Positions 5,593-16,309 of a stretch of 64,000 nt of DNA are shown here, in pieces. This stretch comes from Escherichia coli (GTDB lineage: Bacteria > Pseudomonadota > Gammaproteobacteria > Enterobacterales > Enterobacteriaceae), in NCBI RefSeq assembly GCF_003334255.1, contig NZ_QOWU01000011.1; one strand, written 5' to 3'. The notes under the pieces are model-generated. The model saw nothing but the letters and a program-made list of their open reading frames with translations. It ran no database searches and was not told the origin of the DNA. Each line of letters opens with the position of its first letter. Position 1 is the stretch's first letter. A program made the translations under genes and the position numbers.

Positions 5593-6864
5593 ATGGAAGA
5601 CGACTGCGACATTATTATTATTGGTGCCGGTATTGCAGGCACCGCTTGCGCGTTACGCTGCGCGCGAGCGGGTTTATCCGTTTTGTTACTGGAACGCGCT
5701 GAAATCCCCGGCAGCAAAAATCTTTCCGGCGGGCGGTTATATACCCATGCACTCGCGGAACTCCTCCCGCAATTTCATCTGACCGCGCCTCTTGAACGAC
5801 GCATCACTCACGAAAGCCTTTCCCTGTTAACGCCCGATGGCGTAACGACGTTTTCCAGCTTACAGCCCGGCGGTGAATCCTGGAGTGTATTACGTGCACG
5901 ATTCGATCCGTGGCTGGTTGCCGAAGCCGAAAAAGAAGGTGTCGAATGCATCCCCGGAGCGACGGTGGATGCACTGTATGAAGAAAACGGCAGAGTCTGT
6001 GGCGTTATTTGTGGTGACGATATTCTCCGCGCCCGTTATGTGGTGCTGGCAGAAGGTGCCAACAGCGTCCTGGCTGAACGTCACGGGTTAGTGACTCGTC
6101 CTGCTGGCGAAGCGATGGCGTTGGGGATCAAAGAAGTGCTGTCGCTGGAAACATCCGCTATTGAAGAACGTTTTCATCTGGAGAATAACGAAGGCGCAGC
6201 GTTGCTGTTCAGCGGCAGGATCTGTGATGACTTACCCGGCGGCGCATTTCTTTATACTAATCAACAAACGCTCTCGTTAGGGATTGTTTGCCCGCTCTCT
6301 TCCCTTACGCAAAGTCGTGTTCCGGCAAGCGAGCTGCTGACTCGCTTTAAAGCGCATCCGGCAGTGCGCCCGCTTATCAAAAACACGGAATCACTGGAGT
6401 ATGGTGCGCATCTGGTGCCAGAAGGTGGCTTGCACAGTATGCCGGTGCAATACGCCGGTAACGGCTGGCTGCTGGTGGGCGATGCGTTGCGCAGTTGCGT
6501 CAATACCGGAATTTCCGTGCGCGGCATGGATATGGCGCTGACTGGCGCGCAGGCGGCGGCACAAACGCTGATAAGCGCCTGCCAGCACCGCGAGCCGCAA
6601 AATCTGTTTCCGCTTTATCATCACAACGTAGAGCGCAGCCTGCTGTGGGATGTTCTACAGCGTTATCAGCATGTTCCGGCGCTTTTGCAACGCCCGGGAT
6701 GGTACCGTACGTGGCCTGCGTTAATGCAGGATATTTCCCGCGATTTATGGGATCAGGGTGATAAACCTGTTCCACCGCTGCGCCAGTTATTCTGGCATCA
6801 TTTACGTCGTCACGGCCTGTGGCATCTGGCGGGCGATGTTATCAGGAGTCTGCGATGTCTGTAG
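5593..6864 (+). CDS. ygcN: FAD-dependent oxidoreductase, FixC/ETF-QO-like, 423 aa
   Basis: ORF 5563..6864 (GTG at 5563); MEDDCDIIIIGAGIAGTACA dinucleotide-binding motif; start choice 5593 matches remembered 423-aa length. Confidence 0.88.
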   Translation: MEDDCDIIIIGAGIAGTACALRCARAGLSVLLLERAEIPGSKNLSGGRLYTHALAELLPQFHLTAPLERRITHESLSLLTPDGVTTFSSLQPGGESWSVLRARFDPWLVAEAEKEGVECIPGATVDALYEENGRVCGVICGDDILRARYVVLAEGANSVLAERHGLVTRPAGEAMALGIKEVLSLETSAIEERFHLENNEGAALLFSGRICDDLPGGAFLYTNQQTLSLGIVCPLSSLTQSRVPASELLTRFKAHPAVRPLIKNTESLEYGAHLVPEGGLHSMPVQYAGNGWLLVGDALRSCVNTGISVRGMDMALTGAQAAAQTLISACQHREPQNLFPLYHHNVERSLLWDVLQRYQHVPALLQRPGWYRTWPALMQDISRDLWDQGDKPVPPLRQLFWHHLRRHGLWHLAGDVIRSLRCL

Positions 6865-7115
6865 CCCGTAATCTCTGGCGCGTTGCTGATGCGCCGCACA
6901 TTGTTCCGGCTGACTCCGTTGAGCGCCAGACGGCAGAACGGTTGATTAACGCCTGTCCGGCAGGTCTTTTTTCGCTCACACCGGAAGGTAACTTACGTAT
7001 TGACTATCGCAGTTGCCTGGAGTGTGGCACCTGCCGTTTGCTGTGCGACGAATCAACACTACAACAGTGGCGCTATCCGCCTTCCGGATTCGGCATCACC
7101 TACCGCTTTGGATAA
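6855..7115 (+). CDS. ygcO: ferredoxin-like protein, FixX-like, 86 aa
   Basis: ORF 6819..7115; start MSVARNLW... preceded by AGGAG; CxxCxxC cluster (CLECGTCRLLC); overlaps ygcN 3' end by 10 nt. Confidence 0.88.
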   Translation: MSVARNLWRVADAPHIVPADSVERQTAERLINACPAGLFSLTPEGNLRIDYRSCLECGTCRLLCDESTLQQWRYPPSGFGITYRFG

Positions 7116-7131
7116 ATAATAAGGATAATTT

Positions 7132-13526: not shown

Positions 13527-14804
13527 ATGCAACACAACTCATATCGCCGTTGGATAACCCTCGCGATAATTAGTTTTAGCGGCGGCGTTAGTTTCGACCT
13601 GGCTTATTTACGTTATATTTATCAAATTCCCATGGCGAAATTTATGGGATTCAGCAATACCGAGATAGGTTTAATAATGAGTACCTTTGGTATTGCGGCC
13701 ATTATTCTTTATGCCCCCAGCGGCGTTATTGCCGATAAATTTTCACACCGCAAAATGATTACTTCCGCGATGATCATTACCGGATTACTGGGTCTGTTAA
13801 TGGCAACGTATCCACCGCTGTGGGTAATGCTCTGTATTCAGATCGCCTTTGCGATAACGACGATTTTAATGCTGTGGTCGGTGTCGATTAAAGCTGCATC
13901 GTTGCTTGGCGATCATAGCGAGCAAGGGAAAATTATGGGCTGGATGGAAGGGCTGCGCGGCGTCGGTGTAATGTCGCTGGCGGTGTTTACCATGTGGGTC
14001 TTTTCTCGCTTTGCACCGGATGACAGCACCAGCCTGAAAACGGTCATTATCATCTATAGTGTGGTTTACATCTTGTTGGGGATTCTGTGCTGGTTTTTTG
14101 TTAGCGATAACAACAACCTGCGCAGTGCCAATAACGAAGAAAAACAGTCATTCCAGCTTAGCGACATCCTGGCCGTTTTGCGTATCAGCACCACCTGGTA
14201 TTGCAGCATGGTGATTTTTGGCGTCTTCACCATCTACGCCATTCTGAGTTACTCCACCAACTATCTGACCGAAATGTATGGCATGTCGCTGGTGGCGGCG
14301 AGCTACATGGGGATTGTGATCAACAAAATATTCCGCGCGCTGTGCGGCCCACTTGGCGGCATAATCACCACCTACAGCAAAGTGAAATCCCCTACCCGCG
14401 TGATCCAAATCCTTTCCGTACTCGGCCTGCTGACGTTAACTGCCCTGCTCGTCACGAACTCTAACCCGCAATCGGTCGCGATGGGGATTGGCCTGATTTT
14501 ACTGCTGGGATTCACCTGTTACGCCTCACGCGGGCTGTACTGGGCCTGCCCTGGCGAAGCGAGAACACCGTCTTACATTATGGGCACCACGGTAGGTATT
14601 TGTTCGGTGATTGGATTCCTGCCGGATGTCTTCGTTTACCCAATTATCGGCCACTGGCAAGACACCCTGCCCGCTGCAGAAGCCTACCGCAATATGTGGC
14701 TGATGGGCATGGCGGCGCTTGGCATGGTGATTGTCTTTACCTTTTTGCTGTTCCAAAAAATTCGTACTGCTGATAGCGCCCCCGCAATGGCTAGCAGCAA
14801 GTAA
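13527..14804 (+). CDS. yqcE: MFS-family transporter, 425 aa
   Basis: Full ORF MQHNSYRRWITLAIISFSGGVSFDLAYLRYIYQIPMAKF... Confidence 0.92.
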   Translation: MQHNSYRRWITLAIISFSGGVSFDLAYLRYIYQIPMAKFMGFSNTEIGLIMSTFGIAAIILYAPSGVIADKFSHRKMITSAMIITGLLGLLMATYPPLWVMLCIQIAFAITTILMLWSVSIKAASLLGDHSEQGKIMGWMEGLRGVGVMSLAVFTMWVFSRFAPDDSTSLKTVIIIYSVVYILLGILCWFFVSDNNNLRSANNEEKQSFQLSDILAVLRISTTWYCSMVIFGVFTIYAILSYSTNYLTEMYGMSLVAASYMGIVINKIFRALCGPLGGIITTYSKVKSPTRVIQILSVLGLLTLTALLVTNSNPQSVAMGIGLILLLGFTCYASRGLYWACPGEARTPSYIMGTTVGICSVIGFLPDVFVYPIIGHWQDTLPAAEAYRNMWLMGMAALGMVIVFTFLLFQKIRTADSAPAMASSK

Positions 14805-14830
14805 GCCAGGAAAATTACAGGAGAAAAATC

Positions 14831-16309
14831 ATGTCGAAAAAATACATCATAGGGATTGATGGCGGAAGTCAGAGCACAAAAGTGGTGATGTACGATCTGG
14901 AAGGTAACGTGGTTTGCGAAGGCAAAGGCTTATTACAGCCGATGCACACGCCAGATGCCGATACTGCAGAACATCCTGACGACGATTTATGGGCATCATT
15001 ATGTTTTGCCGGTCACGATTTGATGAGTCAGTTTGCCGGGAATAAAGAAGATATTGTCGGTATTGGTCTGGGATCCATCCGTTGCTGCCGTGCGTTATTG
15101 AAAGCCGATGGCACGCCTGCTGCGCCGTTGATTAGCTGGCAGGATGCACGCGTTACACGCCCTTACGAACACACTAACCCTGACGTGGCATATGTCACCT
15201 CTTTTTCGGGTTATCTGACGCATCGCTTAACCGGCGAGTTTAAAGACAATATCGCCAACTATTTTGGTCAGTGGCCGGTGGATTATAAGAGCTGGGCATG
15301 GAGCGAAGATGCTGCGGTAATGGATAAGTTTAATATCCCCCGTCATATGCTGTTTGATGTGCAAATGCCTGGCACCGTCCTCGGACATATCACACCACAA
15401 GCCGCACTGGCGACACATTTCCCGGCAGGACTGCCGGTTGTTTGTACCACCAGTGATAAACCGGTAGAAGCTCTGGGGGCCGGATTACTGGATGATGAAA
15501 CGGCGGTAATTTCTCTTGGCACTTACATCGCATTGATGATGAACGGCAAAGCACTGCCGAAAGATCCAGTAGCGTACTGGCCGATTATGTCTTCTATTCC
15601 GCAAACATTGCTGTATGAAGGTTACGGTATTCGCAAAGGCATGTGGACGGTGAGCTGGCTGCGCGACATGCTAGGCGAGTCGTTAATTCAGGATGCCAGG
15701 GCGCAGGATCTTTCACCGGAAGATTTACTCAACAAAAAAGCTTCTTGTGTGCCGCCAGGCTGTAATGGTCTGATGACGGTGCTGGACTGGCTGACCAATC
15801 CGTGGGAACCGTACAAACGCGGGATTATGATCGGCTTTGATTCCAGCATGGATTACGCATGGATATATCGTTCGATACTGGAAAGCGTGGCGCTGACGCT
15901 GAAGAACAATTACGACAATATGTGTAATGAAATGAATCACTTTGCGAAGCATGTGATCATTACTGGCGGCGGTTCGAACAGCGATCTGTTTATGCAGATT
16001 TTTGCCGACGTGTTCAACCTTCCGGCACGACGTAACGCCATTAACGGTTGTGCAAGCCTGGGGGCAGCGATTAATACAGCGGTAGGTCTGGGGCTATACC
16101 CGGATTACGCAACGGCTGTCGATAACATGGTTCGCGTGAAAGATATCTTTATACCGATTGAGAGCAATGCCAAACGCTACGACGCGATGAATAAAGGCAT
16201 TTTCAAAGACCTAACCAAACATACTGATGTGATCCTGAAAAAATCGTATGAAGTGATGCATGGGGAATTGGGGAATGTGGATTCGATCCAGAGCTGGTCG
16301 AATGCGTAA
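14831..16309 (+). CDS. ygcE: FGGY-family sugar (pentulose/glycerol-like) kinase, 492 aa
   Basis: Full ORF MSKKYIIGIDGGSQSTKVVMYDLEGNVVCEGKG... Confidence 0.92.
   Translation: MSKKYIIGIDGGSQSTKVVMYDLEGNVVCEGKGLLQPMHTPDADTAEHPDDDLWASLCFAGHDLMSQFAGNKEDIVGIGLGSIRCCRALLKADGTPAAPLISWQDARVTRPYEHTNPDVAYVTSFSGYLTHRLTGEFKDNIANYFGQWPVDYKSWAWSEDAAVMDKFNIPRHMLFDVQMPGTVLGHITPQAALATHFPAGLPVVCTTSDKPVEALGAGLLDDETAVISLGTYIALMMNGKALPKDPVAYWPIMSSIPQTLLYEGYGIRKGMWTVSWLRDMLGESLIQDARAQDLSPEDLLNKKASCVPPGCNGLMTVLDWLTNPWEPYKRGIMIGFDSSMDYAWIYRSILESVALTLKNNYDNMCNEMNHFAKHVIITGGGSNSDLFMQIFADVFNLPARRNAINGCASLGAAINTAVGLGLYPDYATAVDNMVRVKDIFIPIESNAKRYDAMNKGIFKDLTKHTDVILKKSYEVMHGELGNVDSIQSWSNA

Follow-up and report, generated by a model that had tools for sequence, protein, structure and literature searches.

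Introduction

In Bacillus subtilis, the leaders of glpD, glpFK, and glpTQ contain similar inverted repeats at which the antiterminator GlpP acts (PMC10573289, PMC9604022). We analyzed a stretch of 64,000 nucleotides of Escherichia coli DNA (the window; contig NZ_QOWU01000011.1 of RefSeq assembly GCF_003334255.1) that includes ten adjacent genes, ygcNOP, ygcW-ygcU-ygcS-ygcR-ygcQ, and yqcE-ygcE, one of which, ygcP, encodes a member of the GlpP family. A first-pass annotation of the window had described these genes as a module for electron-transfer flavoprotein (ETF)-linked oxidation of a polyol or sugar acid, with no substrate or regulator target established. Here, we describe two leader RNA elements that are predicted targets of YgcP, each located behind a predicted CRP-dependent promoter, and a conserved set of pathway genes that includes a flavoenzyme resembling alkyl-dihydroxyacetonephosphate synthase (ADPS). 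We consider it fairly probable that the cluster forms a catabolic regulon that is induced by its substrate, subject to catabolite repression, and controlled by a switch of two layers, and that it encodes a kinase/short-chain dehydrogenase (SDR)/ADPS-like pathway. The system would be a case of GlpP-type antitermination of a catabolic regulon, not a new category; the new elements are a mechanism of regulation that can be tested, a more precise assignment for YgcU, and a clue from the transporters to the class of substrate.

Results

Two divergent operons begin with overlapping hairpins

The ygcW and yqcE operons each begin with a leader RNA element of ~65 nt (Table 1). The 5′ part of each element can form P1, a 6-bp hairpin with arms GUUACY/RGUAAC and the loop AGAG-N-GAGAAA; the shared segment reads AGUUACC-AGAGAUAAUGAGAAA-GGUAACU in the ygcW leader and AUUACU-AGAGACCUGAGAAA-AGUAAU in the yqcE leader. 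The upstream arm of P1 pairs with nt 7 to 12 of the 5′ strand of a terminator, and the hairpin holds the first 12 nt of that strand. The ygcW leader is the top terminator-like site in positions 4800 to 17000 (19-pair stem plus U8, just before the ygcW ribosome-binding site), with a fold of -40 kcal/mol (z = -5.9). Both hairpins lie between promoter and start codon, not 3′ of genes. Judged from its pairing potential, the arrangement is that of a classic antiterminator/terminator.

In the window, a pattern drawn from both copies matched only the ygcW and yqcE leaders, and no third copy was found upstream of ygcN, ygcP, ygcS, ygcU, or ygcE or anywhere else. The core sequence GA[GA]AA[AG][AG]GTAA is located 75 to 85 nt before the ygcW and yqcE start codons in nearly all of 50 Enterobacterales loci, and in none of those loci does it precede ygcU, ygcE, ygcP, ygcN, or ygcS. 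After gathering 88 distinct elements, we built a covariance model, R1, from 45 sequences. R1 matched only these leaders in 1.26 Mb (48 to 83 bits), all other matches being opposite-strand reflections of the same hairpins; in the window, it matched 13234-13299 on the minus strand (75.3 bits) and 13438-13502 on the plus strand (74.3 bits). The model also detected the element in Thalassobacillus, in Halobacillus, and in Listeria, where it precedes ygcU, and detected two copies each in Bacillus sp. DNRA2, Clostridium sediminicola, Anaeromicrobium, Sporomusa, and Fodinisporobacter. Vibrio hannami has two divergent leaders, like E. coli. The taxa with leaders are thus Enterobacterales, Vibrio, Bacilli, Clostridia, and Negativicutes, and outside Enterobacterales every regulon element found with R1 adjoins a YgcP-type gene. 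An Rfam E-value search of positions 4800 to 17500 assigned no family to the leaders, and its sole match was to naRNA4 at 7734-7807. That match is a REP (repetitive extragenic palindromic)-type element between the convergent ends of ygcP and ygcQ, and it scores 34 bits against a gathering threshold of 59.5.

Pair counts were made with an alignment of 98 sequences that was fitted to the terminator helix, not to the antiterminator. In P1, 93.3% of cells were paired, with compensatory double changes in five of seven pairs (52 cells); none of 500 shuffles was as good, and sliding the partner strand lowered pairing to 16 to 54%. For the terminator, 97.5% of cells were paired, seven pairs had double changes, no shuffle out of 500 did as well, and the slid partner gave 54 to 71%. 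The 5′ strand and loop are near-invariant (GAG and GAGAAA are invariant), and the terminator 3′ strand and distal stem vary freely. One substitution separates the two helices: in the E. coli-type yqcE leader, a C-to-U change in the core (GUAAU) is matched by a G-to-A change in the upstream arm, yet it stays a U·C mismatch in the terminator. Because the change is compensated in the P1 arm and uncompensated in the terminator, we conclude that there has been selection on antiterminator pairing itself.

Predicted class II CRP promoters precede both leaders

The 317-bp spacer between ygcW and yqcE contains two predicted divergent promoters of the class II CRP type. Both have an extended -10 element, from which transcription is predicted to start at ~13299 (minus strand) and ~13439 (plus strand); relative to these starts, CRP would be centered at -41.5, and each transcript would have the RNA element at its 5′ end. 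CRP site 2 matches TGTGA-N6-TCACA at 9 of 10 positions. Two CRP-like sites, each matching 8 to 10 of the 10 consensus positions, are present in all 50 Enterobacterales loci checked. The distance from the center of each site to its own leader start is 39 to 42 nt (40 to 42 nt in nearly all cases), whereas the two sites are 119 to 327 nt apart, depending on the locus. In Firmicutes, the leader element begins 6 to 8 nt past a sigma-A -10 element, a geometry that matches that in Enterobacterales.

Site 1 was predicted earlier as a CRP site (PMC1794230) and is bound by CRP both in vitro, with a dissociation constant of ~1.7 nM by footprint-seq (PMC12871828), and in vivo, by chromatin immunoprecipitation in enterotoxigenic E. 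coli (PMC4287617). yqcE-ygcE has been listed as CRP activated (PMC8085971). Hence, part of the regulation of these genes had already been described. Published binding covers site 1; site 2 is a predicted site, as is the class II geometry at -41.5.

One Enterobacterales spacer differs. In Limnobaculum eriocheiris (locus L032, 13856-13989), the ygcW/yqcE spacer has shrunk to ~130 nt and has one hairpin, terminator-like in both directions; CRP sites, promoters, and upstream arms are all missing. Such a structure looks like the product of recombination between the two inverted leaders, which would leave both operons promoterless.

YgcP belongs to a separate subfamily of GlpP proteins

YgcP matches Pfam family G3P_antiterm (PF04309) over residues 12 to 184 (7.6e-62) and PDB entry 3kts (8.5e-27). 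Listeria grandensis encodes coexisting YgcP-type and canonical GlpP paralogues that are 28% identical to each other; E. coli YgcP is 56% identical to the former and 27% to the latter. By sequence comparison, then, YgcP is a separate subfamily of PF04309, and its ligand probably differs from glycerol-3-phosphate.

Canonical glpP loci of Priestia, Paenibacillus, and Lysinibacillus share one layout in their glpFK and glpD leaders: a short 5′ arm, (G)GAGAA, 2 to 4 nt, GGAGAG, and a 3′ arm, with the second GAGA marking the beginning of the terminator. The Priestia glpD leader has UGGU-UGGAGAAUCGGAGAG-ACCA, the glpFK leaders of Priestia and Paenibacillus have GUGA-CGGAGAAYNGGAGAK-CCAC, and the canonical leaders of both genera have a 5′ AAGUUAAUA box. 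In Lachnoclostridium and Faecalibacterium, a leader with the glpP-type layout precedes a glycerol-3-phosphate oxidase-like gene beside glpP. Model R1 scores the canonical leaders at only 8 to 27 bits, and the ygc leaders appear to be a sequence variant of a family-wide GlpP target. We predict that they are the target of YgcP because they are restricted to operons of the regulon, always beside a YgcP-type gene, and because both helices covary and the layout equals that of the glpFK/glpD leaders.

The canonical glpFK/glpD leaders (loci L066, L074, and L075) also start with a conserved AAGTTAATA box, AAGTTCATA in one of six, which is similar to the AGTTAC arm in elements of the ygc type. In both classes, protein may contact the AGTTA segment, which in the ygc class also takes part in pairing.

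No leader element lies upstream of ygcP. The ygcNOP unit has a promoter-like block of its own, GGTCAAT..17..TATGTTAGGGT, which is conserved upstream of ygcN (5530-5600). Behind this block comes a hairpin of 13 bp (5564-5593), whose 3′ arm contains the Shine-Dalgarno sequence GGGG/GGAG and reaches up to the ygcN start codon; in Citrobacter, Klebsiella, and Mixta, compensatory changes preserve the hairpin. The hairpin may serve translational control of ygcNOP.

The conserved core does not include the ETF genes

A scan with YgcP, using one genome per species, yielded 64 loci, against which we compared all ten proteins by tblastn; six further YgcP-subfamily loci were added by exact protein look-up. 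In the 64 loci, ygcP is always accompanied by ygcU, ygcW, and ygcE, usually together with a yqcE-like major facilitator superfamily (MFS) gene, and the W, E, and U genes are also present in all six added loci. Identity to the E. coli proteins in Listeria, Bacillus, and Thalassobacillus is 70 to 79% for YgcW, 61 to 67% for YgcU, and 54 to 59% for YgcP and YgcE. In contrast, ygcQR and ygcNO are missing from the clusters of Serratia quinivorans, Serratia proteamaculans, Serratia nevei, Pantoea, Erwinia, Ewingella, and Listeria. An etfB-etfA pair lies behind ygcU in the clusters of Vibrio, Sporomusa, Clostridium, and Anaeromicrobium, the Halobacillus and Fodinisporobacter clusters have no such pair there, and FixCX-like genes (ygcNO) were seen only in Enterobacterales clusters among the loci compared.

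The two groups of genes also differ in evolutionary rate. Between E. coli and Citrobacter, YgcQ is 62% identical and YgcW 97%. Values of dN/dS, computed against four Enterobacteriaceae, were 0.008 to 0.045 for ygcP, ygcU, and ygcW (ygcP alone, 0.008 to 0.04; ygcU alone, 0.009 to 0.045), similar to those of the housekeeping genes cysJ and queD. They were 0.03 to 0.12 for ygcE, yqcE, and ygcS and 0.07 to 0.42 for ygcN, ygcO, ygcQ, and ygcR (ygcN alone, 0.07 to 0.19), placing the ETF/Fix genes ~10-fold above the core. All ten genes are therefore under purifying selection and functional. We conclude that the conserved core is ygcP, ygcW, ygcU, ygcE, and a transporter gene and that ygcQRNO are accessory. 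ETF-linked oxidation, which was part of the reading in the first-pass annotation, is not the conserved center of the module: its genes are missing from many clusters and evolve ~10-fold faster.

All 5,426 complete E. coli genomes match part of positions 5000 to 17000, identifying the window as E. coli chromosome, and at least 80% of that interval is present in one place in 5,062 of them. ygcQR were found in 5,102 and ygcUW in 5,100 of the 5,426 genomes (~94%); ~320 lack the cluster genes altogether, and some strains have an IS1 insertion inside or beside ygcW or ygcU. Within E. coli, the ETF proteins are markedly polymorphic, and YgcU and YgcW hardly vary: in a comparison with strain SCPM-O-B-8794, identity is 87% for YgcR and 91% for YgcQ, and dN/dS is 0.12 to 0.16 for the ETF genes and 0.01 for ygcU and ygcW, at similar synonymous divergence.

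In Escherichia, Citrobacter, Klebsiella, Enterobacter, and relatives, the cluster and a CRISPR array lie between queD (5153-5515 in the window) and queE (17621-18292), whereas in Serratia, Pantoea, Rahnella, and others the cluster is at other sites, without que neighbors. The cluster thus behaves as a transferable islet, since its location differs among lineages, with or without que neighbors. The flanks in Serratia and Pantoea, where we looked for clues to the substrate, contain variable, unrelated genes (LysR regulator, aldo-keto reductase, aldehyde dehydrogenase, GABA [gamma-aminobutyrate] transaminase, and diguanylate cyclase), and those in Listeria gave no such clue either.

YgcU resembles alkyl-DHAP synthase

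In a sequence search of the PDB, the best match to YgcU was ADPS (2.7e-40), ahead of glycolate oxidase (4.9e-26), LctD (4.5e-22), and D-lactate and D-2-hydroxyglutarate dehydrogenases. R262, Y398, and H438-440 of YgcU align with R419, Y578, and H615-617 of ADPS, and they are invariant in 12 of 12 orthologues and in a second alignment of 14 sequences, covering five bacterial orders. The titles of ADPS entries in the PDB name Arg419His and Tyr578Phe mutants; a literature search on ADPS residue numbering returned nothing. With the AlphaFold model of YgcU (mean predicted local distance difference test [pLDDT] score, 76), Foldseek ranks 1 to 34 were all ADPS (E value, 4e-29; template modeling [TM] score, 0.75). 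YgcU has 484 amino acids and ADPS 658, a difference of 174; the alignment begins at ADPS residue ~194 to 215 (residue 60 of YgcU aligns with residue 215), such that the N-terminal ~150 to 200 residues of ADPS have no YgcU counterpart.

YgcU scored 142.6 bits with the GlcD model, for which the cutoff is 567.9, and has HHHG in place of the xEHG of GlcD and D-lactate dehydrogenases. Second FAD oxidases (U2) in three anaerobe clusters have the xEHG motif and lack the Arg and Tyr of ADPS. U2 genes are found in Bacillus sp. DNRA2 (L058, 6440-9799), Sporomusa (L069, 13954-15495), and Clostridium sediminicola (L070, 1-2909); those of Bacillus and Clostridium come with their own etfB-etfA pair, the Clostridium EtfA having an N-terminal ferredoxin domain. 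These U2-ETF sets resemble LctBCD lactate dehydrogenase complexes.

By sequence and by model, therefore, YgcU is closest to ADPS, with the catalytic residues kept. The description of YgcU as an FAD-linked oxidase stands insofar as it belongs to the type-4 FAD oxidase family, but it is not a generic member of that family. A small, polar compound is a more probable substrate for YgcU than a fatty acyl or alkyl chain.

Transporters in other phyla hint at a different class of substrate

Outside Enterobacterales and Listeria, seven of eight clusters include a BCCT transporter or an OpuA-type ABC transporter with an OpuAC binding protein. The BCCT transporters belong to the regulon, because in Anaeromicrobium and Sporomusa the leader element directly precedes their genes. 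BCCT and OpuAC proteins recognize trimethylammonium or dimethylsulfonium groups. The cluster BCCT proteins score below every curated betaine, choline, and carnitine subfamily cutoff. In E. coli, YgcS has an organic-cation transporter family among its top three NCBIfam matches. Since the transporters of other phyla are of the BCCT or OpuA type, the polyol or sugar acid proposed in the first-pass annotation fits poorly. Comparison of the transporters hints instead at a glycerol-like substrate with a quaternary ammonium group.

Gene content and other features of the locus

The positions of the ten genes given earlier agree with both the open reading frame (ORF) listing and RefSeq, and the overlaps of 4 nt (ygcQ/ygcR) and 23 nt (ygcR/ygcS) are exact; ygcN and ygcO also overlap, by 10 nt. 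Three transcription units fit gene orientation and spacing, and two of them are also backed by promoter/leader architecture. The family assignments of all ten proteins hold in NCBIfam, Pfam, and PDB comparisons. None of the ten reached a curated NCBIfam equivalog cutoff; hence, no specific function is assigned.

Table 1. Features of the ygc locus, with positions in the window
Feature	Position	Strand	Assignment or sequence	Basis
ygcN	5593-6864	+	FixC-like ETF:quinone oxidoreductase flavoprotein, accessory	ORF listing and RefSeq
ygcO	6855-7115	+	FixX-like ferredoxin-like protein	ORF listing and RefSeq
ygcP	7132-7707	+	GlpP-family RNA-binding antiterminator, distinct YgcP subfamily	Family match
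ygcQ	7855-8715	-	Divergent ETF alpha subunit, accessory	
ygcR	8712-9491	-	Divergent ETF beta subunit, accessory	
ygcS	9469-10878	-	MFS transporter	
ygcU	10900-12354	-	Type-4 FAD oxidase, ADPS-like flavoenzyme, core	
ygcW	12424-13209	-	NAD(P)-dependent SDR, core; heads the ygcW-U-S-R-Q operon	
ygcW leader RNA element	13232-13299	-	P1 arms 13291-13297 and 13269-13275; loop AGAGAUAAUGAGAAA	
ygcW leader terminator	Stem, 13240-13281; U-run, 13232-13239	-	Overlaps P1	
Extended -10, ygcW promoter (predicted)	13305-13314	-	TGcTAAAAAT	Sequence reading and spacing rule
CRP site 1	13333-13348		TGTGATCGTAATCACA; center ~41.5 nt upstream of ygcW leader start	
CRP site 2	13390-13405		CGTGATTACTCTCACA; center ~41.5 nt upstream of yqcE leader start	
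Extended -10, yqcE promoter (predicted)	13424-13432	+	TGtTATTTA	Sequence reading and spacing rule
yqcE leader RNA element	13438-13502	+	P1 arms 13441-13446 and 13461-13466; loop AGAGACCUGAGAAA	
yqcE leader terminator	Stem, 13455-13494; U-run, 13495-13502	+	40-nt span, 16 pairs, interrupted	
yqcE	13527-14804	+	MFS transporter resembling anion:cation symporter family; core in Enterobacterales and Listeria	
ygcE	14831-16309	+	FGGY-family kinase, core	

Among the ETF/Fix proteins, YgcN matched NCBIfam FixC at 2.2e-107 (359.5 bits; cutoff, 610) and FixC of PDB entry 7koe at 3.1e-57, and YgcO matched FixX at 2.3e-23 (82.2 bits; cutoff, 166). YgcQ matched ETF alpha families at 1e-17 to 1e-21, well under their cutoffs; the FixB-like and FixA-like scores of the ETF proteins in the window were 62 bits (cutoff, 549) and 32.5 bits (cutoff, 219). 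YgcW narrowly missed the KduD cutoff (350.6 bits; cutoff, 369) and is thus not KduD by that measure. Its best PDB match was 2-deoxy-D-gluconate 3-dehydrogenase (1.8e-58) and its nearest relatives are SDRs of the KduD/gluconate 5-dehydrogenase type; the surroundings of ygcW are unconnected with pectin or uronate genes. For the transporters, all matches were likewise below cutoff: YgcS matched the aromatic acid/H+ symporter (1.9e-53), sugar porter (1e-41), and organic-cation (TIGR00898; 2.8e-40) families, and YqcE, whose gene is kept beside the kinase gene, matched the D-galactonate transporter family (1.4e-17). The kinase YgcE had subcutoff matches to xylulokinase (2.5e-41), autoinducer 2 (AI-2) kinase (9e-40), and glycerol kinase (2e-28); its best PDB relative was the AI-2 kinase LsrK (1.9e-29), followed by glycerol kinases. 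In Listeria grandensis (L056, 12745-14096), the ygcE orthologue is present as two overlapping ORFs of 162 and 370 amino acids, through a frameshift or a sequencing error.

Downstream of ygcE, type I-E CRISPR repeats (CGGTTTATCCCCGCTGGCGCGGGGAACAC) occur at 16355-16493 and 16947-17300. A six-repeat array, annotated as CRISPR in RefSeq, lies between ygcE and queE, and a degenerate remnant of two or three repeats lies immediately after ygcE.

Full-text literature searches returned only CRP/promoter surveys and incidental mentions of the genes, and no paper naming a substrate, in agreement with the earlier statement that the literature assigns none. One incidental mention reports that deletion of ygcU had no effect on D-serine signaling. 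The "ygcO" of a review of the nitrogen phosphotransferase system (PTS-Ntr) is a misprint for ycgO.

Discussion

We propose that divergent class II CRP promoters would drive ygcW-ygcU-ygcS-ygcR-ygcQ and yqcE-ygcE and that the default fold of each ~65-nt leader would be a strong intrinsic terminator. YgcP, made from the separate ygcNOP unit and loaded with a phosphorylated pathway intermediate, would bind the 5′ hairpin; since this hairpin contains the first 12 nt of the terminator 5′ strand, its YgcP-bound form would block termination. Such an action of YgcP is suggested by analogy with B. subtilis GlpP, together with co-occurrence and covariation. In the pathway, the substrate would be imported by YqcE and/or YgcS, YgcE would phosphorylate a primary hydroxyl, and YgcW would oxidize the adjacent secondary alcohol with NAD(P)+ to yield a substituted dihydroxyacetone phosphate (DHAP); YgcE and YgcW might act in either order. 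YgcU, by ADPS-type flavin chemistry on the ketone phosphate, would then free the substituent and leave a triose phosphate. YgcRQ (ETF) and YgcNO (ETF:quinone oxidoreductase) would provide an optional electron outlet for the YgcU flavin; this outlet is present mainly in anaerobes and facultative anaerobes. From the first-pass annotation, this scheme retains the gene content and layout, and it departs on the class of substrate, the central place of the ETF, and YgcU as a generic oxidase.

Several points weigh against this scheme. All loci were collected via YgcP, so clusters without ygcP fall outside the sample, and the aligned leader sequences are phylogenetically related, so the shuffle statistics overstate independence. 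The antiterminator helix has 6 bp and the terminator ~19 bp; facing such a terminator, the shorter helix would need stabilization by protein. The transcription start sites were deduced from sequence and spacing. Our comparison with canonical leaders rests on Priestia, Paenibacillus, and Lysinibacillus rather than on B. subtilis, whose targets are the only ones studied experimentally; B. subtilis GlpP was not among the top 120 matches of either protein search. For YgcU, D-lactate dehydrogenases come next after ADPS in the Foldseek ranking (3e-25; TM score, 0.70), a modest margin, and the HHH loop of the model has a pLDDT below 50. Finally, the ADPS reaction has no net redox change and sits awkwardly with the ETF genes that follow ygcU in six lineages.

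We regard as doubtful an alternative based on the first-pass annotation: a polyol or sugar acid is taken up, phosphorylated, and oxidized, and YgcU is an ordinary GlcD/LctD-type dehydrogenase that passes electrons to YgcRQ, YgcNO, and quinone. In its favor, the genes immediately behind ygcU encode ETF in E. coli, Vibrio, Sporomusa, Clostridium, Anaeromicrobium, and Bacillus sp. DNRA2, and YgcU has a further match (4.5e-22) to LctD, a lactate dehydrogenase coupled to ETF; YgcW is close to the KduD cutoff, and YqcE resembles sugar-acid transporters. However, ETF/Fix genes are missing from the clusters of Serratia, Pantoea/Erwinia, Ewingella, Listeria, Halobacillus, Thalassobacillus, and Fodinisporobacter. 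YgcU has HHHG where GlcD and D-lactate dehydrogenases have xEHG, with true EHG paralogues beside it in three clusters, and the transporters of other phyla are of BCCT/OpuA type, not of sugar or sugar-acid type.

It is very unlikely that YgcNO and YgcRQ form a FixABCX-type bifurcating complex that gives low-potential electrons to a reductive step instead of accepting electrons, as is thought for fixABCX in carnitine reduction. The cluster does have the full set of four Fix-like components, YgcN has its best solved relative in FixC of a Thermotoga FixABCX entry, E. coli has two paralogous Fix-like sets tied to reductive metabolism, and the BCCT family found in related clusters includes the carnitine transporter. 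Yet the scores of all four proteins are far under the Fix equivalog cutoffs, and their genes are divided between two transcription units and do not share the conservation of the core; ygcNO are confined to Enterobacterales clusters, and ygcRQ-like ETFs occur elsewhere without FixCX.

That the hairpins are ordinary insulating terminators or repeats, with YgcP having another function or none and the cluster being a cryptic remnant in E. coli, is barely credible: the searched literature reports no inducing condition or phenotype, the genes are missing from ~6% of complete E. coli genomes, and the Limnobaculum eriocheiris spacer is reduced to one hairpin without promoters, but the hairpins stand between promoter and start codon with an upstream arm that covaries with the core, the 5′ strand and loop are invariant in contrast to a variable 3′ strand and distal stem, the element accompanies ygcP in two phyla, and all ten genes are under purifying selection, with ygcP, ygcU, and ygcW as constrained as cysJ and queD.

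Within the regulon that we propose, the transporters permit a more specific and rather improbable suggestion: that the compound broken down is glycerol-like, with a quaternary ammonium-bearing group at the 1-position, and that YgcU uses ADPS chemistry to break it down. YgcE would make a glycerol-3-phosphate analogue, which would be the ligand of YgcP; YgcW would oxidize C2 to give a 1-substituted DHAP; and YgcU, with ADPS chemistry in the catabolic direction, would expel the substituent to give DHAP. Speculative candidates are the deacylated head groups of betaine lipids (for example, glyceryl-trimethylhomoserine) and 2,3-dihydroxypropyl-trimethylammonium. A search for literature on bacterial catabolism of deacylated betaine lipids found none. 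If true, this suggestion would reveal a new way of using the carbon of betaine lipids or related osmolytes, under E. coli's only GlpP-type riboregulator.

Compared with other E. coli genes that lack a function, these ten are rather well conserved, being present in 94% of complete genomes with a core as constrained as housekeeping genes. The located switch (two predicted CRP promoters, two leader terminators, and a predicted antiterminator hairpin) offers a direct way toward the substrate: a leader-reporter fusion could be a biosensor for inducers, and YgcP a handle on the ligand. If confirmed, it would give E. coli, in addition to BglG, another protein-mediated system of catabolic antitermination with a distinct mechanism, and GlpP-type regulation would reach beyond glycerol and beyond Firmicutes. 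A catabolic role for bacterial ADPS-like flavoenzymes would be the first for an ADPS-type enzyme.

The Brucella/Rhizobium erythritol pathway likewise begins with an FGGY kinase, EryA, followed by a flavin step on a phosphorylated polyol toward triose or tetrose phosphate; in that pathway, however, EryB is of the GlpD type, a repressor exerts the control, and neither an antiterminator nor an SDR or ETF takes part. LctBCD, FixABCX, and ETF:quinone oxidoreductase systems share the order of a type-4 FAD oxidase gene and then etfB-etfA, and YgcN and YgcO are FixC and FixX like; unlike those systems, YgcU has no EHG motif, and the ETF/Fix genes are dispensable, highly divergent, and well below family cutoffs. 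ADPS (AGPS), a peroxisomal ether-lipid enzyme, is the best match to YgcU in sequence and fold, with Arg, Tyr, and HHH kept, but YgcU is cytosolic, has a catabolic context, is often followed by ETF genes, and lacks the N-terminal domain.

As a regulatory device, the predicted switch is like that of BglG, SacY, and LicT with their ribonucleic antiterminator (RAT) sequences, including E. coli bgl, in that a protein-stabilized hairpin would preempt a leader terminator in a CRP-dependent catabolic operon. YgcP differs from those proteins in having PF04309 as its only Pfam domain, without a co-antiterminator (CAT) domain or PTS regulation domain (PRD), in having no link to the PTS, and in the RNA motif.

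The closest relative is the GlpP system. The ygc regulon has in common with that of B. subtilis a PF04309 regulator whose own gene lacks the element, target operons that open with an intrinsic terminator in the leader, an FGGY kinase whose product is the likely inducer, and catabolite control layered on top; with canonical glpP loci it shares a short tandem-GAGA hairpin overlapping the terminator 5′ strand. It differs in that YgcP, ~27% identical, forms its own subfamily and targets genes other than those for glycerol. The ygc arms are GUUACY/RGUAAC around an AGAG..GAGAAA loop, whereas canonical leaders have GUGg/CCAC or UGGU/ACCA arms, GGAGAA..GGAGAG, and a 5′ AAGUUAAUA box. The host here is Gram negative, its own glp regulon uses the GlpR repressor, and catabolite control would act through class II CRP promoters and not through CcpA.

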